A stretch of DNA of 58,090 bases. It comes from an uncultured Granulosicoccaceae bacterium. GTDB lineage: Bacteria; Pseudomonadota; Gammaproteobacteria; Granulosicoccales; Granulosicoccaceae. This document shows, piece after piece, positions 9,631-53,361 of the stretch. The stretch is taken from assembly GCA_937928685.1 (NCBI GenBank), contig CALGJU010000156.1:1-58090 (forward strand), read 5' to 3'. Every line of letters begins with the position of its first letter. Position 1 is the first letter of the stretch. A program made the position numbers and the translations under genes. The notes below the pieces were generated by a model. It saw only the letters and a program-made list of their open reading frames with translations. It searched no databases and was not told the origin of the DNA.

Positions 9631-9632
9631 CC

Positions 9633-10247: not shown

Positions 10248-10576
10248 TCACGGTTTACTGGCGCGATATTCCGGCACAAGTCACTGCAAAGGCCGGTCGT
10301 AAAACTGCCAAAATTCAACTGACTGATCGCTTTCAGGAAGCGATAGATATGGCCGCTATGCGCGCCGGAAAAGGCGGTACAGAAGCCTACCTTGAAGACT
10401 GGCGTCGCGAGCAAAGAGAATGCTCCAACGACCTGGACATGGAGGTAGCCGCAGCCGCACAAGCCATTGAAGAACAGTTTGATCTGGCCGCACTGCAAGC
10501 AATAGTAAAGAACAAAGGCATCGCAGATAAAAGCATTGCAGATCCTGACAGTTCAACCACCAGTACTGACGAGTAA
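10235..10576 (+). CDS. Small conserved protein of unknown function (family often auto-annotated as virulence factor)
   Basis: 113 aa. Overlaps the upstream gene by 13 nt, which suggests coupled translation. The protein is hydrophilic with an acidic C-terminus. Confidence 0.55.
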   Translation: MAKLITVYWRDIPAQVTAKAGRKTAKIQLTDRFQEAIDMAAMRAGKGGTEAYLEDWRREQRECSNDLDMEVAAAAQAIEEQFDLAALQAIVKNKGIADKSIADPDSSTTSTDE

Positions 10577-10582
10577 AACCCT

Positions 10583-12033: not shown

Positions 12034-12106
12034 CCCCGATCTCAACGGTCAGTTACATTCCATAGACTGACTTCCATAGTTTTCAGATAATTTCCGGGAC
12101 ACCCCT

Positions 12107-13009: not shown

Positions 13010-13087
13010 CCTCAAGTAGCAACGGCCGGTCATAGGTCGATTTAACACAAGGCGTGCACAAGTGGCACAGCCGCAGGAGTTTCGCCG

Positions 13088-16168: not shown

Positions 16169-16703
16169 GCAGTTTATTCCAACCAGTAGCGTGTCTAGTA
16201 GTGCTCAAGATGCTCACGCTTTTTTTTTACTGGTCCGCAATGGCTGCACTTCCTGTGCTTTTGACCGCGATTCTATGATTGATCGCTCTACGTCGCGTGG
16301 GCCTCACTCTGTTCTCGAAGCAGCACGATGATGTACTGTTTGCGACATTTTAGCTTAGGGCCAGATCATTTCACGATAAGGTGCCAAGACGGTATAAACC
16401 GCTATTTGTTATAGTGTTTTCTCATAAACCACTTTTTAGCCATTGATAACTAACCAGTAATTATATTACTGCCCGGTTCAAAAAAATCAGAATTTTATTC
16501 AGGAAATTAGTAATAACTGAACAAAAACAACCCAGTTGACGAGAAATATTTACATTTGCAGCATCAAAATGCTTCTTGATCGCGACTATTTCTGATTCGC
16601 CTGGACGAATAAACGCACCCGCATTAGCTATTTGCGCCGTCAGTAATTGAGCGGCAAAACTCGAAAGTGCTTCGTACTTTGCCGCTCCAGTCATCAGCCA
16701 GAC

Positions 16704-18660: not shown

Positions 18661-18899
18661 GACAAATGTAGCCGCGAAACGGCACACCGGAGCAAATCAA
18701 TTTTGGCGCGACAAACGCTGAGCCATCAAACTCTTCATGAACCATCATTATATGACCCATGCAAGGTGACAACAGGGATGTAGGTAAATAAAGTACACAT
18801 AGCTTTGCGTGGTCAAATCAGCGAAAATATCCTTAATTAATTATCCACTTTTCACTCTAAATACGTATTGCATCAGTCTTGAAATTCAGGCTGTCCACA

Positions 18900-21566
18900 A
18901 TGGGAAAAGCAATGGCAAATCCTCCAGATAAGAAAATTCCGGGCACGGACAAAATCAACCAGGCAACAAGCGATCTCACAAACCAGGCCGACGCATTAGC
19001 GAAAAAAGCCGCAGCAACTGCATCGGCGGCAAAAACATCTACCACAGACGCTGCGAAATCAGTCGTTACCGGCGGCACTGCAACGGGTGGAGCTGTGCCA
19101 CAGCCGGGCAACCGGGGTTCGGGGGGTAGACCTGCGATACCGGGTCAAAACGCTGCCCCGTCATCAGATACACCGCCGCCATTGCCAAAGACTGCAACTA
19201 CCACTAATACGTCAGCGCCTGCTACACCACCAGTGATTCCTGCTGATGCAGCGAAAAATACAACTAACACGGCTGCTGCAAACAGAGCTCAGCCGGCCCG
19301 ACCGCCGGTGGCCAGACCCGCCTCCGCCGCGCAGACTTCGAGCAGAACTGAAAGCCCCAGACCAAAACAATCAGCTTCCAGCGTGTCATCAAGTGAAACT
19401 GAAGTTCGTCGCAGCTCACTAGAGCGACCGGTCAGCGCTACAGACAACACCCACCGCTCGGCAGCGCAAAGAACTGCCCAAAGCATGGACGCAAACCGTC
19501 GTCCGATGCGCCGGGAGGGCTCAGGACGCCCTGCAGCAGACAGACCGCGATCGGCCCGACCGGGATCACGTCCACCTGCCCGGCCAGACACACGCCCCGT
19601 CTATCGTGATTCCCGCCCAAGACGTGCAATGGCTCCACCGCCAGGAGCACGGAAAGGCAGATACGTCGCTCCCGCCGCACGCGCTCGTCGCCCGGGCTAT
19701 GTTGTCCCACCGGCGGTAGCTGCTGATGGCGGCACTGCATGGGGCCCTTTGTTATTCGGGGTTTTGTTGCTGTTGGGGGTGCTGTGGTACGCGATCAAGC
19801 ACTACGCACCAATGATCAACGCCGATTTAACTACCCGCACTAACACCGCCTTGTCAGAAGCTGGCTACGATTCTGCTTCAGTCGAGATTGACGGAAGAAG
19901 TGCCATCCTCACTGGCAACGTTGACGCCCAACCTGATAGCGAGCGCGCCGAAGAGGTGGTTGCCAGCACTATTGGTGTACGTGATGTTGACAACCAACTG
20001 ACCGTCGGTACTACTGACACCGCACAAGTCGAACGCACAGAATCTAGCCTGACATTCTTTGCGACTGAGGCCGGAGTCAAGTTATCTGGCACAGTGTCCG
20101 ATCAGGAATACGCCACCAGAATAGAAACCACAGCCAAAGAGGCTTACGGAGAAGACCGTGTTAGCGGAAGTATCAAAGTTGATGCAAACACGACCAATCC
20201 GGGCTGGTGGCCAGCGGTTCAACAACTGACTCCAGACCTCAATGGTATTGAAGGTGGTTCTTTCTCCGTAATGAACGGCTCGCTGTTACTCACTGGATCT
20301 GCAAGCGACGAGCAAGCCAAAAGCGATATCGGAGCGAAAGCCGCGGAACTGCTAAACGGCCAACTCACTGTTGACAACAGAATTACCGTTCCAACAACCG
20401 CGGCCCCTGCACCGGCACCTCTGAAACCGGGCTTTGCAACAATCTACAACAGCCCTGATCGAATCGCACTCTATGGCAGCCTGCCTGCTGATAGTGCAGC
20501 GGCAATTGAAAGTGCTCTCGACAGCGCAGATAAACCGGTAGCGAGTTTTATAACTACAAGCGACGAGTTCGAAGCGCCTTCCTGGGCAGCCAGCCTCGGC
20601 GGATCATTGAACGCGATGCTGGACATCGAAAAAGCAAAAGTGAAAGTACAGCCTTCCGGAGACGTACTCATATCCGGCATCGCCACTTCTGATGACGCCA
20701 AGCAGACAGCCGGCGACAATGTATCTGCGTTGTTCCCCGATCAGTCCATTGACAACCGAATCGCGGTTCGAGTCCCGGCAGCGGCGCCAGCGCCACAACC
20801 AGCACCCGAGCCAGAGCCAGAACCAGAGGTTGCACCTGCGCCGTTTATGAAGCCTTTCGCAACAATAACGGACCTGGGCTCGAAGGTAACCATCATGGGT
20901 CTACTGCCAGCGGCCACCACCGAATCGATCACACGCGCCTTTGAGGGCGCTGGTCGGTCTGTTGTCACCAATGTCACCATCGATGAACGAGTTATGGCGC
21001 CTGTATGGGGCGATGCCATCACGCAATCGCTTGATACCCTGCGCGGCATTGAAAACGCTAAGATGGCTGTGTCATCAGCCGGCGATGTCACAATCAGCGG
21101 AATCTCTGCAAACGAAGGTGAACGCCAGCGCGCTGCGGACAATAGCCTGGCAGCGTTTGGCAACTCTGTGAGTTTGCGCAACGACATTACAGTCAAAGGC
21201 CCTGATATTAGCGAGCTGTTTGCACAGATCGATCTGGCAGCAATCCGGTTCCGTTCAAACAGTTCCGAATTGGATTCAGATAGCATCAGTATTCTGGATC
21301 AGGTTGCCGACGCGCTATTTCAAATACCAGATGCCACGGTGGCCATTTCAGGCCATACCGACGCAACCGGTAAAGATGAGCGCAATCGGGTACTGAGCGC
21401 TGAGCGGGCCGAACGGGTGAGAAGTTTCCTGATCGATCGCGGTATCAGCGGTGACAGAATGACATCACAGGGCTATGGTTCCAGCCAACCTATAGCTTCC
21501 AACAACACGGTTACCGGTCGGGCCCTAAATCGACGCATCGAATTTGGGTTCACCAACGGAGAATAG
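18900..21566 (+). CDS. Large inner-membrane-anchored BON-domain / OmpA-C-like peptidoglycan-binding protein
   Basis: The N-terminal approximately 290 aa are a Pro/Ala/Arg/Ser-rich low-complexity region. One TM helix follows (LLFGVLLLLGVLWYAI), then BON-like modules ending in the DNxLTV/DNRITV motif. The C-terminal OmpA domain reads RFRSNSSEL ... GHTDATG ... NRRIEF. The start could be ATG 18900, ATG 18912 or the track TTG at 18879. Confidence 0.85.
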   Translation: MGKAMANPPDKKIPGTDKINQATSDLTNQADALAKKAAATASAAKTSTTDAAKSVVTGGTATGGAVPQPGNRGSGGRPAIPGQNAAPSSDTPPPLPKTATTTNTSAPATPPVIPADAAKNTTNTAAANRAQPARPPVARPASAAQTSSRTESPRPKQSASSVSSSETEVRRSSLERPVSATDNTHRSAAQRTAQSMDANRRPMRREGSGRPAADRPRSARPGSRPPARPDTRPVYRDSRPRRAMAPPPGARKGRYVAPAARARRPGYVVPPAVAADGGTAWGPLLFGVLLLLGVLWYAIKHYAPMINADLTTRTNTALSEAGYDSASVEIDGRSAILTGNVDAQPDSERAEEVVASTIGVRDVDNQLTVGTTDTAQVERTESSLTFFATEAGVKLSGTVSDQEYATRIETTAKEAYGEDRVSGSIKVDANTTNPGWWPAVQQLTPDLNGIEGGSFSVMNGSLLLTGSASDEQAKSDIGAKAAELLNGQLTVDNRITVPTTAAPAPAPLKPGFATIYNSPDRIALYGSLPADSAAAIESALDSADKPVASFITTSDEFEAPSWAASLGGSLNAMLDIEKAKVKVQPSGDVLISGIATSDDAKQTAGDNVSALFPDQSIDNRIAVRVPAAAPAPQPAPEPEPEPEVAPAPFMKPFATITDLGSKVTIMGLLPAATTESITRAFEGAGRSVVTNVTIDERVMAPVWGDAITQSLDTLRGIENAKMAVSSAGDVTISGISANEGERQRAADNSLAAFGNSVSLRNDITVKGPDISELFAQIDLAAIRFRSNSSELDSDSISILDQVADALFQIPDATVAISGHTDATGKDERNRVLSAERAERVRSFLIDRGISGDRMTSQGYGSSQPIASNNTVTGRALNRRIEFGFTNGE

Positions 21567-21568
21567 AA

Positions 21569-24295
21569 ATGAATGTCATGGGCGAATTAGCTTTCATATT
21601 GGGTCTCACCGCTATCGCTGGAGCCATCATTGGTTGGTGTATCAGAAATTTCTTTTCTGGCGGTTCAGACAAAAGGGTCAGACAGAATTTCGCCCGTGAC
21701 ATTGATGATGCGATGAAAGATGCCGAGCATCTTCGGCACACACTCGACACAAAAAATCTGGAACTTCGCGATGCGAAGAACGAAGTGCAGCAGCTGCGCC
21801 GCAAGGATAGCTCGGTGGAGTCCGGTACTCGTGCGCAGGTAATCGAAATAAATGATCTGAAAAAAGAGCTTGCGACAACAAAAAAATCACTGCTTGAAAA
21901 CCAGTCTGAGTTCAATTCCTTCCGTACCGAAAAACAAAAGGAACAAAGTGAGCTTCGCAATGAGCTCTCTAAGTACACCGCTGGCGGGTCGGCCAGCAGT
22001 GAGCGATTAGCAGAAGCCACTGAAACTGTGGGTGCGCTGCGAAGTGCCGTTCGAGAGAACGATAAGGTCATTGAAAGCCTTAGAGCACGGGTAAAAGAAA
22101 CAGACTCTACCGTTGAGACCTTACGCAGCCAGTTGACGGCGGCAGAGTCAGGTCGCAGCAAAGTCGAAACAGTCACACTTGAATATGATTCCAAACTTGA
22201 AGAGCTAACAAAATCGCTAGAGACCGCCAGCGACACCGTTGAAAAACAAAAGCACGACTACGACCTGATGCTGGAAAACAAAAACGCAGACATCAAAACC
22301 CTGCATGCCAAACTTGAAACGCTTAGCGCCGAGAGCTCAACCATGAGAAGTCGCGAACATGACTTTAAAAAGAGCGAGAAGCAATTCAAGGAAACCGAGA
22401 GCAAAATTGCATCAGAAGTATCCGATCTAAAGCGTGTGATAGCTGACCGTGATGAAGCACTTACCAAGTCAAAGCAACAAGTCAGTGAACTCAACACACA
22501 AATCAAAGACATTAAGCTTCATGAGCAGAAGGAAGTTCAACGTCTGCAGTCAGAAATAAAAGACACGGCAACTACACGCTCAAAAATCAAGAGCAAAAGT
22601 GCAGAGGTCGCAGCACTCAATGACATGCTGAGAGACTCTGCCGGTAAGCGTGATGTGCTACAAAGGAGTGTTGACAAACTAAACACAACACTCACAGAGA
22701 AAGACAAGCGTATTCAATCGTTGCGCGAAGAGCTTGATGATGTGGCGGCAAGTCGCAACAAGACTTCTGCTCAACTTGGCGAACTGCAAGCACAAGGCAA
22801 TATTGCGCTTGAGAAACTGCAGCAAGACCTCAACCAACTTGCCGCTACTCGTGACGAATACAAAGCTCGTATCGATAGTCTTCAAAGTCAGGTTTCAGAA
22901 CTTCAGCAATCCAAAGAAAAGCAGCAACTCGAACTGACCAACAGCGCCAAGGCAGAACAAAGCAAACTCAAAGAAAACAGCGAGCAATTGTCAGCTAAAA
23001 ACCTGGCACTGCAAAACGAAATGAAGGCCCTGCAACACCAGCTTAAAACATTCCGTAGCGCCGGCGATGAATCGAAAACCCGCATTGAAAACATGCAGTC
23101 GCAGATATCAGAACTGACTCAATCAAAGGAGAACCAGCTACGTGAGCTGCGCACTCAGCTGACCACAAGTTCACAGGCAAATGAAACTAAGCTGAGAGAG
23201 TCGAATACGGAGATCGCCAAGCAAAATAACATGCTGCAAAATGATCTGAAAACGCTGCAGGCCAAACTTCACGATCAAACACGTACACTGGAAAGCCAGA
23301 AGCTGGAAGCCACCAAACAGCTGGAGATCAATCAAAGACTGACCAGCAAACTGCAAGATAAGGAAAGTCGGCTTGCTGACTTTCGCACCAGGCTGGTACG
23401 TGAAGAAAGTGAAAGCCAACGCCTCAATCGAGAGGTATCCGATACAGAGACACTGCGTTTAACTCTGACCGAGCGGGATGCAGAGCTTCGTAAAGCACAA
23501 ATTGCACTGCAAGATACTCAGCTATCCGGTGGACCAATGCAAAAAGTGCTGGAAGAACAAACCCGTAAAAATGATTCTTTGTTGGCCGCGATGCGCGAAC
23601 GTGATGAAGAGATATCACGACTCAACTCACAACTGACCAGCAACAGCCTTAAAAACAAACAGCAACAGTCCAGCATTACCCTTTTGACGCAAGAGAAAGA
23701 CTCTCAAAGCGAGCTGGTGCGGTCACTTGAAAAGCAGGCAGAAAACACCCTGCAGCTGCACACAAAAATTGCACAACAATCTACCGAACTGGAAGAGCTG
23801 AAAGCTCGACTGTATGAACGGGACAACCACCGCAGGACCGCGAGTGCTACTTCAAAATCGGCCACCGCTTCCACCAGCGCCAACAACCTGCAACCCAACA
23901 ACCTGCAGCAAGTTGAGACCCGATCTACTGGCGCCAAGCCACGCGTGTTTGTGCGAGCGGATACCGACACGGAAGCACTGACCGGTGCAACCGGTTATAC
24001 GTCAACACAAAGACCACAATTCACCAAAGACGGGCACCGGATACGCCGCGCGGATGGCACTGATGAGCTCACGTTGCTTCCAGGTGTCACGCAAACCATC
24101 GCGGGAGCGTTTGCCCGCAACGGAGTGACAGACTTTGAGCAAATATCACTATGGACCGATCGCGAAGTTGTCCACTATGCTGAGCGCGTAGGGGTTTCGG
24201 TGCAGCGAGCCGAACAGTACAACTGGCCGAGGGCAGCACGCAGCATACTAAAAGGCAGTTACAGCAAGAACGGTCAGGAGATCGGCAACTCGTGA
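21569..24295 (+). CDS. Membrane-anchored long coiled-coil protein with C-terminal helix-hairpin-helix-like domain
   Basis: Starts 3 nt after the upstream stop. An N-terminal TM helix (LAFILGLTAIAGAIIGW) is followed by approximately 750 aa of E/K/Q/L/S-rich heptad-like sequence. The C-terminal motif DELTLLPGVTQTIAGAFARNGVTDFEQISLW resembles the DDLxxIxGIGPxxExxLxxxGIxxFxQIAxW module. Confidence 0.8.
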   Translation: MNVMGELAFILGLTAIAGAIIGWCIRNFFSGGSDKRVRQNFARDIDDAMKDAEHLRHTLDTKNLELRDAKNEVQQLRRKDSSVESGTRAQVIEINDLKKELATTKKSLLENQSEFNSFRTEKQKEQSELRNELSKYTAGGSASSERLAEATETVGALRSAVRENDKVIESLRARVKETDSTVETLRSQLTAAESGRSKVETVTLEYDSKLEELTKSLETASDTVEKQKHDYDLMLENKNADIKTLHAKLETLSAESSTMRSREHDFKKSEKQFKETESKIASEVSDLKRVIADRDEALTKSKQQVSELNTQIKDIKLHEQKEVQRLQSEIKDTATTRSKIKSKSAEVAALNDMLRDSAGKRDVLQRSVDKLNTTLTEKDKRIQSLREELDDVAASRNKTSAQLGELQAQGNIALEKLQQDLNQLAATRDEYKARIDSLQSQVSELQQSKEKQQLELTNSAKAEQSKLKENSEQLSAKNLALQNEMKALQHQLKTFRSAGDESKTRIENMQSQISELTQSKENQLRELRTQLTTSSQANETKLRESNTEIAKQNNMLQNDLKTLQAKLHDQTRTLESQKLEATKQLEINQRLTSKLQDKESRLADFRTRLVREESESQRLNREVSDTETLRLTLTERDAELRKAQIALQDTQLSGGPMQKVLEEQTRKNDSLLAAMRERDEEISRLNSQLTSNSLKNKQQQSSITLLTQEKDSQSELVRSLEKQAENTLQLHTKIAQQSTELEELKARLYERDNHRRTASATSKSATASTSANNLQPNNLQQVETRSTGAKPRVFVRADTDTEALTGATGYTSTQRPQFTKDGHRIRRADGTDELTLLPGVTQTIAGAFARNGVTDFEQISLWTDREVVHYAERVGVSVQRAEQYNWPRAARSILKGSYSKNGQEIGNS

Positions 24296-24321: not shown

Positions 24322-24350
24322 AAACCCGGCACCTGCCGGGTTTTTTGTTT
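24322..24350 (+). terminator. Rho-independent terminator
   Basis: AAACCCGGC-ACCT-GCCGGGTTT followed by TTTGTTT, located 27 nt after the coiled-coil gene stop. Confidence 0.85.
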
Positions 24351-24473
24351 CTGCAACACCACTACGCCATGCTGTCTGAGATCGGCAGTTTACAAGTCTA
24401 TGCTTGTCGCGCCACCTCATTCGCTCTTATAGTAGCGCCATCAGTAGCGCCATCACCGAACAGGAACCCCCGC

Positions 24474-25592
24474 ATGGTTAAAGTTAATTCGTGGAACGAA
24501 TTTGATCCACTGAAACACGTTATCGTCGGTCGTGCAGACCATACTTGCATTCCGCCCTCTGAACCGGCAACAGAAGCAAAGGTTCCGGAAGACAGCGATA
24601 TGCGTGGCATGTGGGGACCACGCCCACTGGAGACAGTCGAGAAGGCCAATGTTCAGCTCGATAACCTGGTAAAAGTCCTTGAGGGACGAGGCATTACTGT
24701 TGACCGCCCGACACCAATTCAGTGGAATCAGGCTGTGATCACCCCGGACTTCAGTACCGCATCAATGTTTGGCTGCATGCCACCTCGCGATGTACTGCTC
24801 ACCGTAGGCAATGAAATTTTAAGCGCGCCAATGTCATTTCGCTGCCGCTACTTTGAATACCTCGCCTATCACCCGTTGATGCAACGTTATTTTGACGAAG
24901 ATCCCAACTTCAAATGGGAGAGTGCCCCGCGACCCAGACTGTCTGACGATTCATACCAGGCCGGCTACTTTGACGAGATCACCATCGAAGAACGCTTAGA
25001 CCGAACAGCGGCATTGGATTTTGTAACCAAAGAGCACGAACCACTGTTTGATGCTGCAGATGTGATGCGGCTTGGCAAAGATCTCTTTTGCCAACATGGA
25101 CTCACAACCAACCGACGTGGCATGGAGTGGTTAAAGCGCCATTTTCCAGATCATCGAATACACTCGGTAAACTTTCCGGGTGACCCCTACCCTATTCATA
25201 TCGATGCGACGTTTGTGCCTTTAAGGCCCGGTCTAATTATCAATAACCCGAACCGCCCGTTACCGGATGCACAGCGTAAAATATTCAGCCAGAACGACTG
25301 GGAAATTATCGACGCGGCAACACCTGTACATAACTCACCGCCACCACTATGTTATTCAAGTGTGTGGCTCTCAATGAACTGTTTGGTGCTTGATCATAAG
25401 ACCGTCATCGTTGAGGCAAGCGAAACCAATCAGATGGATCAAATGGACAAACTCGGGATGGAAGTCATACCCATGCCATTTCGAGATGCTTATCCATTCG
25501 GTGGCGGCTTGCATTGTGCCACTGCCGATGTCCATCGTGAGGGAAGCTGTGAAGACTACTTTCCAAAATTAGCCAACGAAACGTTAGTGTAA
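24474..25592 (+). CDS. Amidinotransferase, glycine amidinotransferase (AGAT/GATM)-like
   Basis: From MVKVNSWNEFDPLKHVIVGR onwards it aligns by eye along its full length with vertebrate L-arginine:glycine amidinotransferase (NEWDPLEEVIVGR ... HIDATF ... GGGFHC). The catalytic Cys lies in GGGLHCAT. The track start at 24345 lies inside the upstream terminator. Confidence 0.88.
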   Translation: MVKVNSWNEFDPLKHVIVGRADHTCIPPSEPATEAKVPEDSDMRGMWGPRPLETVEKANVQLDNLVKVLEGRGITVDRPTPIQWNQAVITPDFSTASMFGCMPPRDVLLTVGNEILSAPMSFRCRYFEYLAYHPLMQRYFDEDPNFKWESAPRPRLSDDSYQAGYFDEITIEERLDRTAALDFVTKEHEPLFDAADVMRLGKDLFCQHGLTTNRRGMEWLKRHFPDHRIHSVNFPGDPYPIHIDATFVPLRPGLIINNPNRPLPDAQRKIFSQNDWEIIDAATPVHNSPPPLCYSSVWLSMNCLVLDHKTVIVEASETNQMDQMDKLGMEVIPMPFRDAYPFGGGLHCATADVHREGSCEDYFPKLANETLV

Positions 25593-25701: not shown

Positions 25702-27765
25702 TTACGCAGATTCTATTTTGACAGCAGTGTCATGAAACACACCACCGCCATTGGGGAAACCAGGCTCAGCACTCACCAACGCATTCACCCCAACACCCTC
25801 CTCAAATGCAGAGTTAGGCCAGATACTTTCCATAATAACCACACCCGTCTGCACTCCTTCAAACGCTTTCACGTGAACACCTATATTCCCACAAGCACTG
25901 GTGACTCTGACCTTTTGTCCATCAGCAATAGATAACGACGTCAAGTCATCTTGATGGACCAATAATGTGGGCCGTTTTTCGCGCTTAACTGAAGTGGGCG
26001 TCTCTGTGAATGTAGTGTTTAGAAACTGCCTTGCGGGAGCTGCCACCAAACGGTATGGATAGCTATTAGATGACTCATCAGTGACATCCCAGTGATCTGG
26101 CATGGTCGGCATACGCTGGTAGTTCGGTCCGACCCGGCTCCAGTCCGGTGAAAAATGAAACTTCTTATCCGGAGTATCAAACCCGTTTAAAAAATTGCTG
26201 TCCTCAAAATCACGGGCAATATCCTGCCAGTGTTCTTTATACAAAGTCTCCGCATCATGTAAACCCGATGCCTTAAGTGCTTGATCACACAAGTCCCATT
26301 CGGTCATGGTAAAACCCGGGTGCTCAAGACCAAGCCTTGCAGCCAATTGACATAAGACTTGATGATTACTACGGCACTGCCCGGGAGGCTCTACAATTTT
26401 CCTGGTCATTTGCACATGCGTATGACCACCCGCGACATAAAGATCGTCATGCTCAAGGAACATAGTGGCGGGCAGTACAATATCTGCAAACTTAGCAGTG
26501 TCTGTCATAAACTGTTCGTGCACACAGACGAAAAGATCTTCCCTCAATAACCCTTTTATCACCTTATTCGATTCAGGTGCGACCACTGCGGGATTAGTAT
26601 TTTGAACAAACAATGCCTTGATAGGCGGACCATTCTGAAGATCTATCGGGTTACCGGTCAGTATGTCACCGATTCTGGACTGATCCAGCACTCTCACCTC
26701 TGTTGCCCGATCCAATCCTTCGATAAGCGTTTTATCAATATTGGAATACAACGCGCCGTTTGAATACAGGGCACCACCGCCACGCTGCTTCCACGCACCC
26801 GTGAGTGCTGGCAGGCAAGTGACTGCATGAACATTAACCGCTCCGTTGCGACTGCGGGAAAAGCCATAGCCAACGCGGATAAAACTCTTTCTATTCTCAC
26901 CATACAATCTGGCAAACGCGATGATTTCCTGCACGCTCAAGCCAGTAATATCCGCAGCCCATTGCGGCGTTTTTTCAGATAAATGCTTTTCAGTCACCAC
27001 TGAAAAGTCTGTGTACTTACTCAGATAGTCGCGATCTGCATAGCCCTCTTTGATCAATACATGCATTACCGCCGCGGCCAACGCCCCATCGGTGCCCGGG
27101 CGTAACATCAAATGCTGATCCGCCTGTTTTGCAGTACCTGTTTTATAAGGATCAACCACAACCAGTTTTGCACCGCGCTTTTTTGCAGTGGCAATATGGT
27201 GCATTAGATTCACTTGCGTGTTCACCGGGTTACCACCCCATACGACAATTAAATCGCTTTCGTCGACAAGCCTTGAATCAGCACCACGTTTTGCACCCAC
27301 CCCTACGTTCCAGCCTGCATCAGCCAGTGTGGTACAGAAGGTATTGTGCTGCTGCGACGTTGCAAGACAGTTTCGAAAACGATTTATACCATCACGTTGA
27401 ACTAATCCCATGGTGCCTGCATAGTGATACGGCCAAACCGCCTCAGCGCCATACTTCGCTATTATCGACCGCATCTTCTCTGCGACTATATCGAGCGCAT
27501 CGTCCCAGGCAATGGGTTCAAACTCACCATTGGCGGATTTTTTATTACTGCGGCGCAACGGTTGCGACAATCGATCAGGGTGATGAATGCGCTCGGCATA
27601 ACGAGCTACTTTTGCGCACACCACGCCCTGCGTGTATGAATTATCAGCGCCATACACACGGCCAATGGTATGACTGTCAATCTTCTCTACCTCAAGCGCA
27701 CAAGTGCTGGGGCAATCGTGCGGACAAGTAGAATGAAAGCGGGGTAGGCCTACCGGTGTATTCAT
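25702..27765 (-). CDS. Molybdopterin (bis-MGD) oxidoreductase family protein, cytoplasmic, with N-terminal 4Fe-4S domain
   Basis: 687 aa. An N-terminal CPHDCPSTC ... C motif is followed by molybdopterin oxidoreductase and C-terminal dinucleotide-binding beta-barrel regions. No Tat signal is present and the substrate is not deducible. Confidence 0.85.
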   Translation of the reverse strand: MNTPVGLPRFHSTCPHDCPSTCALEVEKIDSHTIGRVYGADNSYTQGVVCAKVARYAERIHHPDRLSQPLRRSNKKSANGEFEPIAWDDALDIVAEKMRSIIAKYGAEAVWPYHYAGTMGLVQRDGINRFRNCLATSQQHNTFCTTLADAGWNVGVGAKRGADSRLVDESDLIVVWGGNPVNTQVNLMHHIATAKKRGAKLVVVDPYKTGTAKQADQHLMLRPGTDGALAAAVMHVLIKEGYADRDYLSKYTDFSVVTEKHLSEKTPQWAADITGLSVQEIIAFARLYGENRKSFIRVGYGFSRSRNGAVNVHAVTCLPALTGAWKQRGGGALYSNGALYSNIDKTLIEGLDRATEVRVLDQSRIGDILTGNPIDLQNGPPIKALFVQNTNPAVVAPESNKVIKGLLREDLFVCVHEQFMTDTAKFADIVLPATMFLEHDDLYVAGGHTHVQMTRKIVEPPGQCRSNHQVLCQLAARLGLEHPGFTMTEWDLCDQALKASGLHDAETLYKEHWQDIARDFEDSNFLNGFDTPDKKFHFSPDWSRVGPNYQRMPTMPDHWDVTDESSNSYPYRLVAAPARQFLNTTFTETPTSVKREKRPTLLVHQDDLTSLSIADGQKVRVTSACGNIGVHVKAFEGVQTGVVIMESIWPNSAFEEGVGVNALVSAEPGFPNGGGVFHDTAVKIESA

Positions 27766-45836: not shown

Positions 45837-46778
45837 CTAAGCCACAAAGGCTGTAAGTTCCTTTTTGTTAAAGTGGTTGGCTAAATTTTCTAACATTAAC
45901 TTACCCATCGCTGTACGTGTTTGTACGGTACCGCTTGCCACATGAGGCTGCAGAACCACATTTGGCAGGTCAACTAAACCGGCTGTTATTGCAGGCTCAC
46001 CGACAAAAACATCAAGACCGGCCCCGGCAATTTGACCAGAGATTAACGACTTCACCAGAGCAGATTCGTCAACAATAAGACCGCGCGACACATTAATGAC
46101 TCGACCGTTGGGCCCAAGTGCTGCAAATATTTCCTCACCAACACACGCCGCCATATCCGGGGTGGGAGCCACTGCAAGTATTAAACAGTCCACTGCTTCA
46201 GCCATCGCTTTCAGGTCTGAATAATAAGTGTATTCCACATCGTTACGCTCGCTCCTGTTGCAATAACTTATCTGACATTGAAACCCTTCCAAGCGCTTTG
46301 CTATTGCCAGCCCGATGCGACCCAGACCGAATATTCCGACACTTGCTCCTGTGAATTTAGTTGTCAGCGGTGCCGGCCCCTGTGTTTCCCACTGCCCACT
46401 GCACGCATACTGATGTGCAAACGGAATCTGCCTGTACGCGGCAAGACACAAACCCAGCGCTAAATCCGCCACATCATCGGTTAGCACATCCGGTGTATTA
46501 CCCACGCGAATACCATTGGCCTTACAGTAGTCTAGATCCACCGCATCTACACCCACACCGAATACACTAATGACTTCAACTTTGGGTAGCTGGCGTATCA
46601 ATTCCGCACTGGCGCCTGACCCACCATCGGTCACTATGCCACGCACATCAGAAGCCACTTCTTTTAGTAAGGCCGATTGATCTTCTGCTTCCCACAGTTT
46701 GTGAACCTGATAGTTTGCTTCAAGCTCTGCTTGAGTTGGCCCGTAAAGGGGGTTCACCAGCACGACGGATTGACTCAT
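45837..46778 (-). CDS. D-isomer-specific 2-hydroxyacid dehydrogenase (glyoxylate/hydroxypyruvate reductase-like)
   Basis: NAD-binding motif GIFGLGRIGLAIAKR. Catalytic Arg/Glu/His region is SRGLIVDE ... QPHVASGT. Confidence 0.9.
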   Translation of the reverse strand: MSQSVVLVNPLYGPTQAELEANYQVHKLWEAEDQSALLKEVASDVRGIVTDGGSGASAELIRQLPKVEVISVFGVGVDAVDLDYCKANGIRVGNTPDVLTDDVADLALGLCLAAYRQIPFAHQYACSGQWETQGPAPLTTKFTGASVGIFGLGRIGLAIAKRLEGFQCQISYCNRSERNDVEYTYYSDLKAMAEAVDCLILAVAPTPDMAACVGEEIFAALGPNGRVINVSRGLIVDESALVKSLISGQIAGAGLDVFVGEPAITAGLVDLPNVVLQPHVASGTVQTRTAMGKLMLENLANHFNKKELTAFVA

Positions 46779-46809
46779 AACACTCTCTTTTTTTGAATTA
46801 TTTTGACCA

Positions 46810-46835
46810 CCGCCCGGCTTGAAGCTTCCGGGCGG
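46810..46835 (-). other. Intercistronic GC-rich hairpin between larB and the dehydrogenase gene
   Basis: CCGCCCGG ... CCGGGCGG forms an 8-bp stem around a palindromic AAGCTT-containing loop. No U-tract follows on the transcribed strand. Confidence 0.35.
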
Positions 46836-46890
46836 ACAACGAAACTAACACTGGTTTCTTTTTTGAGTTGCTTTTTTGGGTTGATTATTT

Positions 46891-47547
46891 TTACTTGCCA
46901 ACAGAAAGAATTTTTAACAACGCACAGGCAGCACCAAATCCGTTATCGATATTCACGACCACCACCCCTGGCGCGCAACTGGACAACGCACTACTCAATG
47001 CCGCCTTGCCATGCTCTGCAACACCGTAGCCTGTTGAACCTGGTACCGCAATGACCAGCCCCGGCACCAAACCTGCCAGCACAGAAAACAGAGCGCCCTC
47101 CATACCAGCCACTGCAATGATAACAGGCGCCTGCCGCAGTATTGGCAGATGATCGGTTAACCGCCACAAACCTGCAACACCACAATCATTGATCACACGA
47201 ACCTCAATGCCGTTAAACAACAACGTGCGCCGCGCCTCTTCAGCAACAGAAATGTCCGACGTACCAGCAGTGACTATAAGACAATCAGACGCTTGTGGTA
47301 CCGCGATACCATTATCGACAAAGGCTGTAGCTGAAGACTTATGCCAATCAATGTTTTTGTATTGCCGCTGCAGTATATCGGCATCACCTTGTGCCACACG
47401 GGTCAACAATAACGAACTCTTTTTTTGTTGCGCATCTGCGACAATACTCAAGACTTGCTCTTGCGACTTATTAGCACAAAGCACCGCTTCCGCTATCCCG
47501 GTCCGCGATTCTCTTTGCCAATCAAAATTGAACTCTTTATCTGCCAT
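46891..47547 (-). CDS. larB: LarB, nickel-pincer cofactor biosynthesis carboxylase/hydrolase (PurE-like)
   Basis: PurE-like fold with AGTSD and VAGMEGALFSVLAGL motifs. Positioned within the lar cluster. Confidence 0.9.
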   Translation of the reverse strand: MADKEFNFDWQRESRTGIAEAVLCANKSQEQVLSIVADAQQKKSSLLLTRVAQGDADILQRQYKNIDWHKSSATAFVDNGIAVPQASDCLIVTAGTSDISVAEEARRTLLFNGIEVRVINDCGVAGLWRLTDHLPILRQAPVIIAVAGMEGALFSVLAGLVPGLVIAVPGSTGYGVAEHGKAALSSALSSCAPGVVVVNIDNGFGAACALLKILSVGK

Positions 47548-47550
47548 GAA

Positions 47551-48405
47551 TTATTGACTGATTTCAGTGGTACGAAGAAATGCACTGCCCATACGATACG
47601 GCTCAATACGCAAAAACTCCCTGTTACTGTCTGCGCATAACTTACCAACCAACTCGCCAACAACATCATAGACCGCACTATCACTAAACGCCTGACTTTC
47701 AGCCGGCAGCTGCACTACCACCCCCTCATTCACAATACGACAACGAATATCACTGGCGCCAAGATAACCCGAAAGCCCGGTCTCTACTCGATGAATAAAA
47801 CGCAGATCAATCACATTAATACTGATACCCGTTTCAATTCGACTTGAAAGGCATGGCTGCGCCGGCAGCTGTGCAAGCCCCCCTAAGCCTGACGCCGACG
47901 CGAGTTGTCTTATCATATTTTTACTAATGCCGGCTTCTACATAAGGTTGCCATACATTCTTTTCTCTGGCGGCTTTAAGGCCGGGACGGTAGTCTCCCAG
48001 ATCATCAGTATTAGTGCCTGTGGCAATAAGACAATCTGCTCCTGCTTTTGCTAATATGCTCTCAAACAAACTACTTTTACAGTAGTAGCATCGATTCACC
48101 GGGTTTTGAATATACTGTTTGTTATTAAACTCCCCGGCATCAATCTCTTCAAGCGTCCAGTCATGCCTTTTCGACAATTCCCGACACCGCTCCGTGGCTT
48201 CGATCGGAACCGCCGCTGATATAGCGTGCATCGCAATCGTGGGCGCAGTTCGTACCCGTGATGCGATGGTCATTAGCGTGAGACTGTCGATACCACCGCT
48301 AAGCGCAATATAAACCGGTTGTGGCTGTGCTTTCAAAACGCCTTGAAGCTCAGTTAACTTTGCACTTATCACTGTAGCGATCACCTTTTTAGGCCTCACT
48401 TCCAT
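47551..48405 (-). CDS. larE: LarE, PP-loop ATP-dependent sulfur transferase of nickel-pincer cofactor synthesis
   Basis: PP-loop ALSGGIDS. Cysteines occur in NRCYYCKS and PAQPCLSSR. Overlaps larC by 17 nt. Confidence 0.88.
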   Translation of the reverse strand: MEVRPKKVIATVISAKLTELQGVLKAQPQPVYIALSGGIDSLTLMTIASRVRTAPTIAMHAISAAVPIEATERCRELSKRHDWTLEEIDAGEFNNKQYIQNPVNRCYYCKSSLFESILAKAGADCLIATGTNTDDLGDYRPGLKAAREKNVWQPYVEAGISKNMIRQLASASGLGGLAQLPAQPCLSSRIETGISINVIDLRFIHRVETGLSGYLGASDIRCRIVNEGVVVQLPAESQAFSDSAVYDVVGELVGKLCADSNREFLRIEPYRMGSAFLRTTEISQ

Positions 48406-49618
48406 CAGTCAACGCTTCGTTAACCGCCAGACTCTGTAGTGTTATTGCAGTGTGTCTGCGCAACTCAAGCGTGTCGGACTCAGAAAGGTCATCGCTGCCT
48501 ATTTTCGCCGAGCGGATGTTACCAGGGCGTTCCACCATTTTTAGTTCGTGACCTTGGGTTTCTGTTTTCCTTCTCGGCAGCACTTTGCGAGTCACACTTC
48601 CATATCGCACACCCAGAGTGGAAGTGAGTTTAAAACACTGTTGAATTATCGGCTCAACAGTCTCTGGCTGCACGAGAATGCGAATGCCTGTGGCTACCCT
48701 GCCTTTTTTTCCCTGCATCATCACACAACTCACATCAAGTACCCCCTCACACGCACGTAGTCTATCAGTCGACCAGGCTACTTCTTCTGCCGTCATGTCA
48801 TCAACTTCAAAACCAATTCGTACCACTTCATCGGTGAGCAGTACATCACCGGATTCATCTATCTGGCATGCTCGGGTAAAGGCCATCACACGCAGAAGAT
48901 TGGCACGGCCTTCCAGCACCCGGGTACCGCAGCCACTACCAACAGCACACAGTTTCAGCTGCGCTGAAGCCATACCTGCCGGTGTCGCTTCGAGATACGC
49001 AACAATTGCGGCCCCCGTAGGGGTAACTCGCTCGCCAGCGACACCATCGTCATGCCACTGAAAGCCTGTCAGTAAAGCCAGTGTGGCTGGCGCCGGCACC
49101 GGTATGTCCCCATGTGCCGTGTTTACACTACCAGCGCCAAGTGGCAGGTGGCCAATCCGCCAGTGAGCACACTTTACCCGCGCGATGATTCCCGCCGCTG
49201 CAACTATATCTACCATGGAGTCCCAGTCGGACACTTCGTGAAAGTGAATTGTGTCCATCGTTTTTCCGTGCACTTGAGCTTCAGCGTGCGCCAATAGTCT
49301 GAAAATTCCAGTGGCGTGATTGCAAACAGAAGGTTCCAATGATTTTGATTCAAGAAACGCTTTGACAGTGGCTAGTGTGCGCGGCGGTTTGGCCGTTGTC
49401 TTTTGCGTAACGCTGAAGTATTTCGCCTGCAACCCATTCGACAATCGATCTTCCAGTGACGCCGACAATCCCGCAACATTAAGCTGCGCAATATCATTCT
49501 CAAAGTCTTCAAACAGGTCCGGGAATGCACCGAACATTGCTGCGGCAAACATATCACCGGCAATACCACCGAGTGGCTCAAGGTCGATTCGAACTATAGG
49601 CTCGTCAATAGTATTCAC
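48389..49618 (-). CDS. larC: LarC, nickel-inserting cyclometallase (single uninterrupted ORF)
   Basis: The N-terminal LEPLGGIAGDMFAAA resembles the LarC SGISGDM motif. The 409-aa ORF is full length without a frameshift. Confidence 0.88.
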   Translation of the reverse strand: MNTIDEPIVRIDLEPLGGIAGDMFAAAMFGAFPDLFEDFENDIAQLNVAGLSASLEDRLSNGLQAKYFSVTQKTTAKPPRTLATVKAFLESKSLEPSVCNHATGIFRLLAHAEAQVHGKTMDTIHFHEVSDWDSMVDIVAAAGIIARVKCAHWRIGHLPLGAGSVNTAHGDIPVPAPATLALLTGFQWHDDGVAGERVTPTGAAIVAYLEATPAGMASAQLKLCAVGSGCGTRVLEGRANLLRVMAFTRACQIDESGDVLLTDEVVRIGFEVDDMTAEEVAWSTDRLRACEGVLDVSCVMMQGKKGRVATGIRILVQPETVEPIIQQCFKLTSTLGVRYGSVTRKVLPRRKTETQGHELKMVERPGNIRSAKIGSDDLSESDTLELRRHTAITLQSLAVNEALTDGSEA

Positions 49619-49625
49619 ACGCGGC

Positions 49626-50951
49626 TCAAGTTAAGGGGGCAAAGGAAAATGGCACCACATACGGGCCCTCGGGGATTACCGCGATCTCATTATCTGCATG
49701 GCGCTTCAGGCTTTCTTCAATCGATGCTGTCAGATCATCAACCACTTCAACCCCCGTGATCCCCGATGGATCACTACCGAGCCTGGGTGCATACAGTTTT
49801 ATTCTGCCGACACGCATTGGCTTTAGCTGCATTTCGGTTTGCCACTCATCCACATCAGCCAACGTCTTTTTTGCAATCGACTTTAAAAAACCTTCAGTGC
49901 CGAGTGCCACCAATTGCTTTTGTGCCGCACAAAACTCTTCAGACCCGAATCCCTCTGAGCATTCTGAAACAATAATCAAGTCACCGCCTTCTTCAAGAAT
50001 GCTCAGTGGCGTGACCATGCCTTTCACTGTTTGATAATACGTTTTATCCAACGGATAACCCGCCGAGGATGTCAGAATAGTTTTGAATTTCCGCCCGACA
50101 TTTAATTCACAACTTGCCCGTGCAAATTCTACTGCGCTGAGATGACTTTCAAGCACATCTCCAAAGGTGGCATGGACCAAATTGCGATTTTCATCAAGCA
50201 CGGTGTTAAGGCCCAGCACTGGCCCTGTTAACATCTGCAAGATTTCGAGCTGCGTTTCGTGTAGCGGATTTCCCTCAAGAATGCAGGAGGTGGCCAGTGG
50301 GTGCTCCATGAACCTTGCACTATGAAATGTGCGGATCGTTTCATGATGGGCCACCCCGGGTGCAATCACTTTGCGTCCACCGGAATACCCTGCCATAAAA
50401 TGCGGCTCCACCAAACCCGTAGCGATTTTTATATCTGCCTCTACAAACAAACGGTTCAACCCAACCGGTACCGAGTGTGTTTCAGTAACCCCCAAATGAA
50501 TACAGCTGTCTTCATCTCGGGCATAGTGGTTTACCACTTTGACATTTCTTTGTACCCAGGGATCTCCAAGTAATTCTTCAAGTTCCTGATCAAGGTTGGG
50601 TCTGTGCAACCCGGTCGCAACCAGTACGGTAACACCAGAGGCTGGTAACCCTGCATCTGCCAATCGACGAATTAAAGGCCGTAAAAACTCACCGTTTGGC
50701 ACAGGTCGAGTGATATCGCAAATCAGAATGCATGCTGTTTTAGCACCCTTGGCGAGTTCAGTCAGGTAATCCCCTGAGCCTGGCAGCGACGGATGTTGAT
50801 CAGAAGTTATCGGGTGCGCTAGAGCGTGCTGGATAATTTCTTCAGCGGTTTTGTCGATCTTCATCGCAGGTTTACGTAACACAGTAGGTTGGGCCTGCGA
50901 AGGCAGATCAACCTGCAAACCAGACTGTCCGAACGCCAGTTCAACTTTCAT
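49626..50951 (-). CDS. larA: LarA-family nickel-pincer-dependent 2-hydroxyacid racemase/epimerase
   Basis: DUF2088-type sequence. Residues matching L. plantarum LarA are the catalytic His (ATGLHRPN and EPHFMAG), the cofactor-tethering Lys (YSGGRKVIAPGV) and the Ni-ligand His (IRTFHS). Confidence 0.9.
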   Translation of the reverse strand: MKVELAFGQSGLQVDLPSQAQPTVLRKPAMKIDKTAEEIIQHALAHPITSDQHPSLPGSGDYLTELAKGAKTACILICDITRPVPNGEFLRPLIRRLADAGLPASGVTVLVATGLHRPNLDQELEELLGDPWVQRNVKVVNHYARDEDSCIHLGVTETHSVPVGLNRLFVEADIKIATGLVEPHFMAGYSGGRKVIAPGVAHHETIRTFHSARFMEHPLATSCILEGNPLHETQLEILQMLTGPVLGLNTVLDENRNLVHATFGDVLESHLSAVEFARASCELNVGRKFKTILTSSAGYPLDKTYYQTVKGMVTPLSILEEGGDLIIVSECSEGFGSEEFCAAQKQLVALGTEGFLKSIAKKTLADVDEWQTEMQLKPMRVGRIKLYAPRLGSDPSGITGVEVVDDLTASIEESLKRHADNEIAVIPEGPYVVPFSFAPLT

Positions 50952-51105: not shown

Positions 51106-51894
51106 ATGAATCAGCAAGCCGTTTTATCATCTGACGCTCAAAAGGTCACTCAGGTTAAACACTGGAACGATCGTCTGTTTTCATTCAGAGTGACGCGACC
51201 TGCGAGTCTTCGCTTTCGATCTGGCGAGTTTACAATGATCGGCTTGCCTGATGACACCACAAAACCACTCAAGCGCGCCTACTCTATAGCCAGCCCTTCC
51301 TGGGATGACGAGCTGGAGTTTTATTCGATCAAGGTCAGCGATGGCCCGCTCACCTCACGATTGCAAAAAATCAAAGTCGGTGACGACATCATTGTGCAGC
51401 CCAAGCCAGTAGGCACGTTGGTGCTTGATGCCTTACTGCCAGGCAAACGGCTGTATATGTTCGCCACCGGTACGGGTGTCGCTCCGTTTGCATCATTGAT
51501 TCGTGATCCCGACCTGTATGAACGATTCGACCAGATCATCCTGACACACACCTGTCGCCAGGTTGAAGAGCTCGGTTATAGCCAGGCACTGATCAACGCT
51601 TTACCAGATGATCCGTTGATCGGCGAACTATCACAGAAAAAAATTCGCTATTACCCAACCATAACGCAGGAAGAATTTACCCCCCAGGGGCGCATTACCC
51701 AACTGATCGAATCCGGTCAGCTTTTTCGTGATCTCGACGTATCGTCCATCAACCCGGACACTGATCGAGTGATGATTTGTGGCTCGATGGGACTGAACAA
51801 AGATATGAAGGCGATCTGCGAAGGCTTCGGTTTAGTTGAAGGGTCAAACAGTCGTCCCGGCACTTTTGTCATGGAAAAAGCATTCGTCGACTAA
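51106..51894 (+). CDS. fpr: Ferredoxin/flavodoxin-NADP+ reductase
   Basis: FAD motif RAYSIAS and NADP motif MFATGTGVAPF. The C-terminus MEKAFVD is typical of bacterial Fpr. Confidence 0.9.
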   Translation: MNQQAVLSSDAQKVTQVKHWNDRLFSFRVTRPASLRFRSGEFTMIGLPDDTTKPLKRAYSIASPSWDDELEFYSIKVSDGPLTSRLQKIKVGDDIIVQPKPVGTLVLDALLPGKRLYMFATGTGVAPFASLIRDPDLYERFDQIILTHTCRQVEELGYSQALINALPDDPLIGELSQKKIRYYPTITQEEFTPQGRITQLIESGQLFRDLDVSSINPDTDRVMICGSMGLNKDMKAICEGFGLVEGSNSRPGTFVMEKAFVD

Positions 51895-52002
51895 CGCTTC
51901 AGCGTTGCTTACAATCGTGGCTGCCGTGGAACTAATAGGCAGCCTGAGAATCAGATCTGTTGTTGACGATCTCAGATCAACGAATGTAAACGAGGACGAA
52001 AT

Positions 52003-52422
52003 ATGAAAAGACGCCAATTTCTGGCACTTTCTACATTGGCACTCTCTGCATCTACACTGGCCGCACGTGTCAGTTGGGCAGAAGCCGGCCACCATGTGGA
52101 TTTCACTCAAGAGGCTTACGCAAAAGCACTCGAGAGTGGTGAGCCCTTCATGCTTGACTTCTCAGCTTCCTGGTGACCAACCTGCCGATCTCAAGAGCGC
52201 ACCGTGAGTGCACTAATCGACGGTAACGACGCCTACAAAGCGGTCACAATTATGCGAGTTGACTGGGACACCTTCAAAGGTGATGAATGGGTCAAAGAGC
52301 TTAAAGTGAGAAGACAATCAACATTAGTAATGTTCAAAGACGGCGAAGAGATCGATCGTTTAATCGCCCAGACCTCTTCCGCCGTGATCGAAGAAATGTT
52401 TGCAAAAGCCATTGCGAGCTAG
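52003..52422 (+). CDS. Tat-signal thioredoxin-family protein with in-frame TGA at the first position of the WCxxC motif (candidate selenoprotein; alternatively a pseudogene)
   Basis: The ATG at 52003 lies 6 nt after GAGGA. The N-terminus MKRRQFLALSTLALSASTLAARVSWA is followed by ... PFMLDFSASW-[TGA 52174-52176]-PTCRSQ ... QSTLVMFKDGEEIDR. The frame is continuous with the track ORF 52204..52422. The layout matches the periplasmic thioredoxin family that carries ASWCPTC ... QSTLIVF. Confidence 0.6.
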
Positions 52423-52440: not shown

Positions 52441-52467
52441 AAAACGGGACCATTCGGTCCCGTTTTT
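52441..52467. terminator. Bidirectional rho-independent terminator
   Basis: AAAACGGGACC-ATTC-GGTCCCGTTTTT lies between convergent genes. A-tracts and T-tracts flank it on both sides. Confidence 0.85.
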
Positions 52468-52503
52468 ATTTAAGTTAAGCACCCTTCACACCAGCTACCT
52501 TAC

Positions 52504-53361
52504 CTATGCTGGTGGCATCTCGGCATGCTGCGGTGTCTCATCAGTAATTTCAAACCAATCCGCTTTAGACTCAATGTAAATATGCGCTTTAGGTTCGATC
52601 CCGGGGTGATCATCCAGCGATCCAGCCGGGACATTAAGCATGGGAGAGTTTTCTGACTGCCTTGGTACAGACGAGCCGCACTGTTTGCAAAAGCTGTTAC
52701 CAAAGCGCTCTGCATCCGGCAAATCATACACAGTAACGTTTGCTTCACCCTGCAACCATTCAAAATCTTCCGGTGCTACAAATACATTGGCAGCATGTGC
52801 GGCACCTTTTACTTTGCGGCATCGGCTGCAATGACAAAGCATCATTAGCTTGGCACTGCCTGACTTGTATCGAAACGTCACGTCTCCACACAAACAACTG
52901 CCACCAACATGACCTTCATGAGCACTTCCTCTTTCTGATTGCTCAATGGAGGTAAGCCCCTGTTCCGTCGCTATCTCATCGTATTCGGCCATCTGCGGTA
53001 GATGATCAGTGATTTGATACCAATCTGCTTTTGATTCAGCAAAGATATGCTTGATTGGACTTATACCGATAGCACTGTCAAGCCCGCCAGCCGGAACAAA
53101 ATAAAATTCCGCCCCGTCTACATCTTCCGGCAAAACTGAACCGCATTCCTTGCAGAAGCATCGATAAAATCCGGGTGATGATTCAAACCGGGTGATCTTA
53201 TCTTCACCATGCTTAATGGTGACTCCAGGGCTTCTGACATAACTTCCAAACGGTGTGCCGTGTGCCTTTTGACACATCGAGCAGTGACAGTGAATAAAAT
53301 TTTCCAGCGGCTCTTCGACTTCGTAGGCCACAGCACCACACAAACATGATCCGGTTAGCAT
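52504..53361 (-). CDS. Tandem GFA (glutathione-dependent formaldehyde-activating / CENP-V) domain protein
   Basis: Two copies of the GFA Cys pattern are present. The first is GSCLCGAV ... CHCSMCQKAHG ... CKECGS and the second is GSCLCGDV ... CHCSRCRKVKG ... CKQCGS. Confidence 0.85.
   Translation of the reverse strand: MLTGSCLCGAVAYEVEEPLENFIHCHCSMCQKAHGTPFGSYVRSPGVTIKHGEDKITRFESSPGFYRCFCKECGSVLPEDVDGAEFYFVPAGGLDSAIGISPIKHIFAESKADWYQITDHLPQMAEYDEIATEQGLTSIEQSERGSAHEGHVGGSCLCGDVTFRYKSGSAKLMMLCHCSRCRKVKGAAHAANVFVAPEDFEWLQGEANVTVYDLPDAERFGNSFCKQCGSSVPRQSENSPMLNVPAGSLDDHPGIEPKAHIYIESKADWFEITDETPQHAEMPPA

Follow-up and report, generated by a model that had tools for sequence, protein, structure and literature searches.

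The gene at positions 52003 to 52422 of the window, by which we mean the whole 58,090-nucleotide stretch of DNA from an uncultured Granulosicoccaceae bacterium that was analyzed, very probably contains a true selenocysteine (Sec) codon served by a functional SECIS element. The codon is a TGA at the position of the nucleophilic Cys of a thioredoxin WCxxC motif. The finding is a UxxC thioredoxin selenoprotein of a familiar type, and it involves no new mechanism. The evidence is comparative, and from it we infer that Sec is actually inserted at the UGA. The features of the locus are as follows.

51106 to 51894, + strand: ferredoxin-NADP reductase-like gene, the conserved upstream neighbor in 14 Sec-form loci.
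51887 to 51915, + strand: promoter-like site TCGACT-17-TACAAT upstream of the gene, a weak consensus match only.
51992 to 51996, + strand: Shine-Dalgarno sequence GAGGA, seen in the sequence 6 nt 5′ of the ATG at 52003-52005.
52003 to 52422, + strand: predicted selenoprotein coding sequence of the thioredoxin family, 139 codons including the Sec codon, with a TAG stop at 52420-52422.
52003 to 52080, + strand: predicted export signal MKRRQFLALSTLALSASTLAARVSWA, in which an RRxFL motif of the twin-arginine type is followed by a hydrophobic core, a c-region with a basic residue, and S-W-A.
52174 to 52176, + strand: UGA, predicted Sec codon, at the nucleophilic Cys position of WCxxC.
52183 to 52185, + strand: TGC, resolving Cys of UxxC; orthologs differ synonymously here (TGC or TGT), and all of them encode Cys.
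52196 to 52214, + strand: candidate SECIS hairpin, with 5′ arm 52196-52202 (AGCGCAC), loop 52203-52207 (CGUGA), and 3′ arm 52208-52214 (GUGCACU).
52318 to 52320, + strand: Ser codon at the thioredoxin cis-proline position (RRQ-S-TLVMF), placed by the family alignment.
52441 to 52476, + strand: intrinsic terminator with an 11-bp stem, a 4-nt loop, and a T-run, 19 nt past the full-length stop.

The original prediction had described an ATG at 52003 with a good GAGGA ribosome-binding site, a TGG-TGA-CCA-ACC-TGC run, an unshifted continuation into the open reading frame at 52204-52422, and an intact QSTLVMFKDG block. All four were found as described: GAGGA occupies 51992-51996, the TGA-containing run lies at 52171-52185, the frame stays open to the TAG at 52420-52422, and the QSTLVMFKDG block is intact downstream of the TGA. 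The frame starts with MKRRQFLALSTLALSASTLAARVSWA, and its active-site stretch reads ...DFSASW-TGA-PTC.... No stop or frameshift other than the TGA interrupts 52003-52422. Mechanical open reading frame calling at the locus returned two ORFs split at the TGA, one of 57 residues and one of 72 residues starting at GTG 52204.

The same codon is TGA in 48 distinct orthologs with protein identities of 45 to 77%, collected by scanning metagenome contigs and a single genome of each species. They belong to uncultured Granulosicoccaceae (the closest, at 77% identity), Chromatiales, Ectothiorhodospiraceae, other Gammaproteobacteria, and several Betaproteobacteria, or come from metagenomes. TGC or TGT stands at this position in all alphaproteobacterial homologs and in four nested gammaproteobacterial ones. 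In the alignment of 88 family members, for which Sec was written as C, the column contains Sec or Cys only and never Trp. The assignment of the TGA to the nucleophilic Cys of WCxxC was thus upheld, as Cys aligns there in homologs, and other Sec-containing orthologs, which the prediction had envisaged, were found in 48 distinct TGA forms.

In a neighbor-joining tree, the gamma/beta clade is filled by Sec forms. Four Cys forms (L031:7170, L036:8214, L040:10160, and L038:10088) are nested in this otherwise Sec-only clade and have lost the hairpin; these four gammaproteobacterial genes are likely Sec-to-Cys conversions. Several genomes harbor two or three Sec paralogs, each with its TGA and hairpin. 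Two Sec copies per contig, in tandem or a few kilobases apart, were seen at L023 (10154, 10764), L025 (6276, 6847), and L034 (367, 7317), and multiple Sec-thioredoxin paralogs occur in the single Granulosicoccaceae MAGs CALLLW01, CAYMFQ01, CAZYRP01, and CAYPDN01, some of them on separate contigs.

Viewed in the window alone, a stop inside a conserved motif might be a nonsense change in a decaying thioredoxin gene or a sequencing or assembly error, and the fold of the hairpin is not significant against shuffled sequences. The identical TGA is nevertheless present in 48 independent assemblies with divergent sequences, the frame carries no further stops or frameshifts, and the hairpin is conserved in the TGA forms only. 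The region downstream is also under purifying selection. The median dN/dS beyond the hairpin was 0.19 (218 pairs, dS of approximately 1.9) and that upstream of the TGA was 0.23, with a value of 0.097 between the window gene and the ortholog at L010. These comparative data refute decay or error, to which we assign a negligible probability. They also agree with the earlier contention that the TGA is not a random nonsense mutation, as the codon is conserved in 48 orthologs and followed by a frame under purifying selection.

The codons that follow the TGA behave as coding sequence. The Cys codon three codons 3′ of it is TGC in 24 sequences and TGT in 9, with the amino acid invariant, and the nine codons between the TGA and GTG 52204 are conserved as protein and synonymously variable. 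Judging from these substitution patterns, the frame is translated past the TGA. A different reading is that the locus makes two products: a fragment of 57 residues that comprises the signal peptide and stops at the TGA, and a protein of 72 residues initiated at GTG 52204; mechanical ORF calling yields exactly these two, and public annotations call them. Against this, the nine intervening codons are maintained as protein with synonymous variation, GTG 52204 lies within the hairpin loop and has no ribosome-binding site, neither fragment could adopt a thioredoxin fold, and the Cys homologs are single polypeptides. Two separate products are in our estimate as improbable as decay or error. Taken together, purifying selection, the variation of the Cys codon, and the strong terminator placed after the full-length stop rule out that the locus is a pseudogene, that the TGA is a sequencing error, and that two ORFs are expressed.

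A stem-loop downstream of the TGA had been proposed from the window sequence. It was recovered at 52196-52214 as AGCGCAC-CGUGA-GUGCACU, with one C.A mismatch in the window, and its loop begins 26 nt after the UGA, in the distance range of a SECIS as had been stated. The additional CGAU/AUCG pairing proposed to flank it did not hold up, as only 55.6% of its cells are paired across orthologs. The conservation of the stem-loop itself, on which the prediction was to stand or fall, is complete: the 7-bp hairpin was found in all TGA forms (36/36 and 12/12, i.e., 48/48) and in no Cys form (0/13 and 0/68, i.e., 0/81). Every Sec form has the 7-bp stem and a CGUG(A/C) loop in the same register.

The stem shows the covariation expected of a conserved RNA structure. 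Over the 48 distinct sequences, 92.9% of the stem cells are paired, and three of the seven stem pairs are changed on both sides in a compensatory manner, a number reached by 0 of 500 shuffles. Stem pair 2 is G-C in 38 sequences, A-U in 9, and G-U in 1, and it is never broken. A metagenome ortholog (L103:10157-10236) carries two adjacent double compensatory changes, C-G to U-A and A-U to G-C (AGCGUGC...GCACGCU), by which its protein goes from R-T-V-R-A-L to R-A-V-R-T-L; since the double changes alter the protein, RNA structure dictates protein sequence there. The hairpin codons are synonymously frozen (CGC in 32/33, ACC in 33/33, GTG in 33/33, and AGT in 25/25 sequences), whereas codons for Thr, Val, Cys, and Tyr vary freely in the rest of the gene. 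On this covariation and the restriction to UGA forms, the hairpin is SECIS-like.

Its geometry was compared with the bacterial SECIS model, which specifies an apical loop of 3 to 9 nt, an upper stem of 4 to 16 bp, a distance of 16 to 37 nt between the UGA and the loop, and a G in the first two loop positions followed by G or U (PMC13188914); qualitative criteria are also given in PMC1088965. With a 5-nt loop, a 7-bp stem, G-U at loop positions 2 and 3, and a spacing of 26 nt, the window hairpin fits. The energy criterion of the model is a minimum free energy of -7.5 kcal/mol or lower. By this measure the window is a borderline case: its hairpin alone has -5.0 to -6.1 kcal/mol and reaches -13.1 kcal/mol with a nonconserved lower stem that includes CGAU/AUCG. 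Orthologs with perfect stems have -9.3 to -11.9 kcal/mol, and the mean of the Sec forms is -8.05 kcal/mol. The weak energy in the window is due to the C.A mismatch, which is common to about half of the family. When the 67 nt from 52174 to 52240 were folded as a single sequence, the result was no better than for shuffles (z = -0.70).

Rfam gave no relevant match, either for the whole window at the gathering threshold or for 52100-52300 at E ≤ 10. This null carries little weight, because, to our knowledge, Rfam includes no family for bacterial SECIS elements in general. The element resembles the SECIS of Escherichia coli fdhF in being a coding-region stem-loop 3′ of the UGA with a G-U in a small apical loop and in fitting the consensus bSECIS. 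It differs in the position of the loop, 26 nt from the UGA, in a stem of only 7 bp with a frequent C.A mismatch, and in lacking a conserved lower helix; it is a candidate SelB site.

Translation through the TGA might proceed without Sec, with Trp or Cys inserted by a near-cognate or suppressor tRNA and the hairpin acting as a generic stimulator, or with a genetic code in which TGA means Trp. The appearance of Trp at this codon in public annotations could be taken to favor this. In a first protein search, the nearest database proteins had a W-W-x-x-C motif (P0001, P0002, P0003, P0005, and P0006, from loci L001 and L004 to L007), and two others ended at ...SW and ...TW; at the DNA level, all of them have TGA at the Sec codon. 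The 90% cluster of P0001 brings together a 134-residue "WW" product and fragments of 52 and 72 residues from the same gene. The W-W-x-x-C products arose because short contigs were called with code 4 (TGA as Trp), and the truncated proteins are table-11 calls on longer contigs; the Trp calls are thus artifacts of gene calling, which could be mined for other missed selenoproteins. In the window, TGA is the stop codon of 15 of the 42 genes and Trp is encoded by TGG 178 times; the use of TGA as a stop in these 15 genes excludes a code in which it means Trp.

The homologs, moreover, have Cys and never Trp at the TGA site. A single base change would convert the codon to Cys, yet TGA is kept in 48 lineages, and both the loop sequence of the hairpin and its spacing agree with the SelB-type SECIS model. 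Weighing these points, we regard read-through without Sec as improbable, though less so than decay or two products. A second point in its favor is the lack of Sec machinery in the window and in the related loci.

The 58-kb window and 2.2 Mb of related loci contained no selA, selB, selD, or tRNA-Sec gene. ARAGORN detected no tRNA-Sec in the window and all 169 loci, and tblastn with E. coli SelA, SelB, and SelD against the window and the related loci gave only weak GTPase-domain matches to EF-G. Annotation of the larger ORFs of the window likewise revealed no sel genes, and its 702-residue GTPase is EF-G. Missing the sel genes in the window plus 2.2 Mb is expected by chance and is not evidence against Sec decoding. 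Genomes with two or three TGA- and hairpin-containing paralogs under purifying selection would be hard to explain without a working Sec system.

Further selenoprotein genes were sought as well. A scan of the locus flanks for other redox genes with an in-frame TGA gave 597 candidates, mostly off-frame ORFs and too noisy to be of use; a stricter in-frame-TGA scan of the window gave no other credible candidate. The window contains a 687-residue molybdopterin oxidoreductase (25702-27765, - strand) with subthreshold similarity to the formate dehydrogenase alpha subunit; its gene has no in-frame TGA, and it is thus not a second selenoprotein.

With Cys put in for the TGA, the protein matched the Pfam Thioredoxin family PF00085 at 42.2 bits against a cutoff of 23.5, so that the proposed thioredoxin fold is supported by a match above threshold. 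The NCBIfam thioredoxin equivalog TIGR01068 was not reached (39.3 versus 96.8), indicating that the protein is not canonical TrxA. No NCBIfam model reaches its threshold and no source names the family; weak subthreshold NCBIfam matches were to the C-terminal thioredoxin domains of DsbD and of the DsbD-fusion selenoprotein TsoB. By sequence, the closest solved structure is 5zf2/5zpv (E = 6e-16), with WCPTC aligned to WCPVC.

The Cys homolog P0004, which shares 50% identity with the window protein, was modeled with AlphaFold; the model has a domain pLDDT of 94 to 98 and shows a classical thioredoxin fold, with WCxxC at residues 78 to 82, N-terminal to a helix spanning residues 80 to 95. It superimposes on PDB thioredoxins with TM scores of 0.8 to 0.87, the nearest being Edwardsiella Trxlp (5zf2; TM 0.87, rmsd 1.7 Å, 33% identity). 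In a PDB profile search, the best 60 matches were classical thioredoxins and PDI a-domains; membership in the DsbD-gamma, CcmG, or TlpA groups is not supported, as these best 60 matches lie elsewhere.

A twin-arginine signal peptide had also been predicted. The RRxFL motif is indeed there, as the window protein has K-R-R-Q-F-L-A, a hydrophobic core, and S-W-A, but the curated Tat-signal model TIGR01409 was not reached: it had no match for the window protein and gave an ortholog 10.3 bits against a threshold of 16.7. An RR motif lies within the first 14 residues in 82 of the 88 family members. Going by its RRxFL motif, the window protein would be exported by the Tat pathway, with a putative signal cleavage site at S-W-A. 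Tat-type signals are typical of proteins that are exported already folded, often carrying a cofactor.

In RRQ-S-TLVMF, the Ser occupies the alignment position of cis-Pro76 of E. coli TrxA; in thioredoxins, this conserved proline stands before strand beta-4. Among the 88 members, this column is Ser in 85, Ala in 2, and Tyr in 1, and never Pro, in Sec and Cys forms alike. For human TRX1, replacement of the cis-Pro by Ser, Thr, or Ala was reported to be enough for an active-site [2Fe-2S] cluster (Su et al. 2007, as cited in PMC6210436). Together with the Tat-type signal, the lack of the cis-proline raises metal or cluster binding as a possibility. It is conceivable, but in our view unlikely, that the family consists of cofactor- or metal-binding periplasmic selenoproteins and not of plain disulfide reductases. 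If this were true, a Tat-exported protein of thioredoxin fold with a selenolate as ligand or nucleophile, expanded in Granulosicoccaceae to two or three paralogs per genome, would represent a functional class new to bacterial selenoproteins.

The most widely conserved neighbor of the family is a gene for a 237-residue CcdA/DsbD_TM protein, present in approximately 60 loci. ccdA immediately follows the gene in 11 gamma/beta Sec loci and four gamma Cys loci; in almost all alphaproteobacterial loci, it immediately precedes the gene. This linkage suggests that the family receives reducing equivalents from CcdA in the periplasm. The 58-kb window itself contains no ccdA. The window copy belongs to a Granulosicoccaceae subclade of 14 loci. 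In these loci, the gene is preceded by a ferredoxin-NADP reductase-like gene and followed by a convergent GFA gene with two domains, and ccdA is absent from the vicinity.

We propose the following mechanism. The hairpin at 52196-52214, acting as a bacterial SECIS, would recruit SelB-GTP-Sec-tRNA(Sec), so that UGA 52174 would be read as Sec by the established bacterial mechanism. Gene 52003-52422 would thereby yield a mature thioredoxin-fold thiol/selenol oxidoreductase of approximately 113 residues with a U-P-T-C active site, which the RRxFL signal would direct to the periplasm, probably via the Tat pathway. There the selenolate may attack substrate disulfides or other oxidized sulfur species, and the resulting selenenylsulfide with Cys61 would then be re-reduced. 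Family-wide gene linkage suggests a CcdA-type membrane electron conduit as the reductant, also for the window copy, which would be a paralog no longer encoded beside ccdA.

Other genes of the window were annotated in passing. The convergent neighbor at 52504-53361 (- strand) encodes two GFA (glutathione-dependent formaldehyde-activating/CENP-V-like) domains, is kept beside the Sec-thioredoxin gene in 14 loci, and shares with it the bidirectional terminator at 52441-52466. A Lar cluster occupies 45837-50951 (- strand), with LarA at 49626-50951, LarC at 48389-49618, LarB at 46891-47547, a 2-hydroxyacid dehydrogenase, and a probable LarE at 47551-48405 (- strand) that has no Pfam match; the cluster is syntenic with the Sec-thioredoxin gene in approximately 12 Granulosicoccaceae loci (12 to 14 for the Lar genes and 9 for the dehydrogenase).

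A corrinoid methyltransferase system lies at 8920-18251. It comprises an MtgC-like corrinoid protein (8920-9630), an MTHFR-like gene (11041-12033), a methyl-H4folate:corrinoid methyltransferase (12107-13009), an AcsV-like reductive activase (13088-15136), and a full-length MttB-family methyltransferase (16704-18251, - strand), and it is probably a quaternary-amine (glycine betaine-type) demethylation pathway. Two large ORFs of 908 and 415 residues (21569-24295 and 24345-25592, + strand) have no Pfam match, and an 895-residue BON/OmpA-domain protein (18879-21566) is encoded directly before the former.

Trx UxxC is an experimentally verified prokaryotic selenoprotein family (PMC13188914). Among the selenoproteins of marine bacteria, thioredoxin-like UxxC proteins belong to the most abundant ones and to those known for the longest time (PMC2398784, PMC13188914), and "Trx-like 1 (COG0526), UxxC" was the third most abundant selenoprotein family in the Global Ocean Sampling (GOS) data, with 321 Sec sequences and 7,880 Cys homologs (PMC2398784). 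The subfamily described here shares with Trx-like 1 (PF00085/COG0526) the thioredoxin fold, Sec in place of the N-terminal nucleophilic Cys, many Cys homologs, a marine setting, and a SECIS hairpin inside the coding region just after the UGA. It differs in having an RRxFL signal and a ccdA pairing, in lacking the cis-proline, and in being covered by no NCBIfam model or name. It may be a new, or at least unannotated, UxxC member; it is set apart from published Sec-thioredoxins by these traits rather than by direct alignment and may equal a subfamily already listed.

Edwardsiella Trxlp/TRX3 (5zf2, 5zpv) has the same fold, a WCPVC motif, and the same Q-S-T-L replacing the cis-Pro loop; it is, however, a Cys and not a Sec protein, is enterobacterial, and is titled a thioredoxin-like effector protein in the PDB. 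With the CcdA/DsbD pathways (partners of the ResA/CcmG/TlpA type and DsbD gamma), the family shares a periplasmic CxxC/UxxC protein of thioredoxin fold encoded beside DsbD_TM/CcdA, whereas the profile search places it with classical thioredoxins and the window copy has no adjacent ccdA. Our literature searches turned up neither a paper that connects Granulosicoccus to selenocysteine or selenoproteins nor one on a Sec-thioredoxin linked to CcdA.

In current annotation pipelines, these genes are either broken into two or mistranslated with Trp, and they are not covered by any NCBIfam model. The SECIS, CGCACCGUG[A/C]GUGC, is very short and constrained in sequence. It fixes the protein sequence R-T-V-[S/R]-A-L and thus provides a clean signature for reannotation, and it is a compact element for studies of SelB binding. 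The finding adds an unnamed, SECIS-bearing thioredoxin-like subfamily with approximately 50 Sec members in Granulosicoccaceae, other Gammaproteobacteria, and Betaproteobacteria. With its missing cis-proline and its Tat-type signal, the subfamily gives a testable lead toward an unusual function, and it points to an investment of selenium in the redox chemistry of the periplasm by these marine bacteria.
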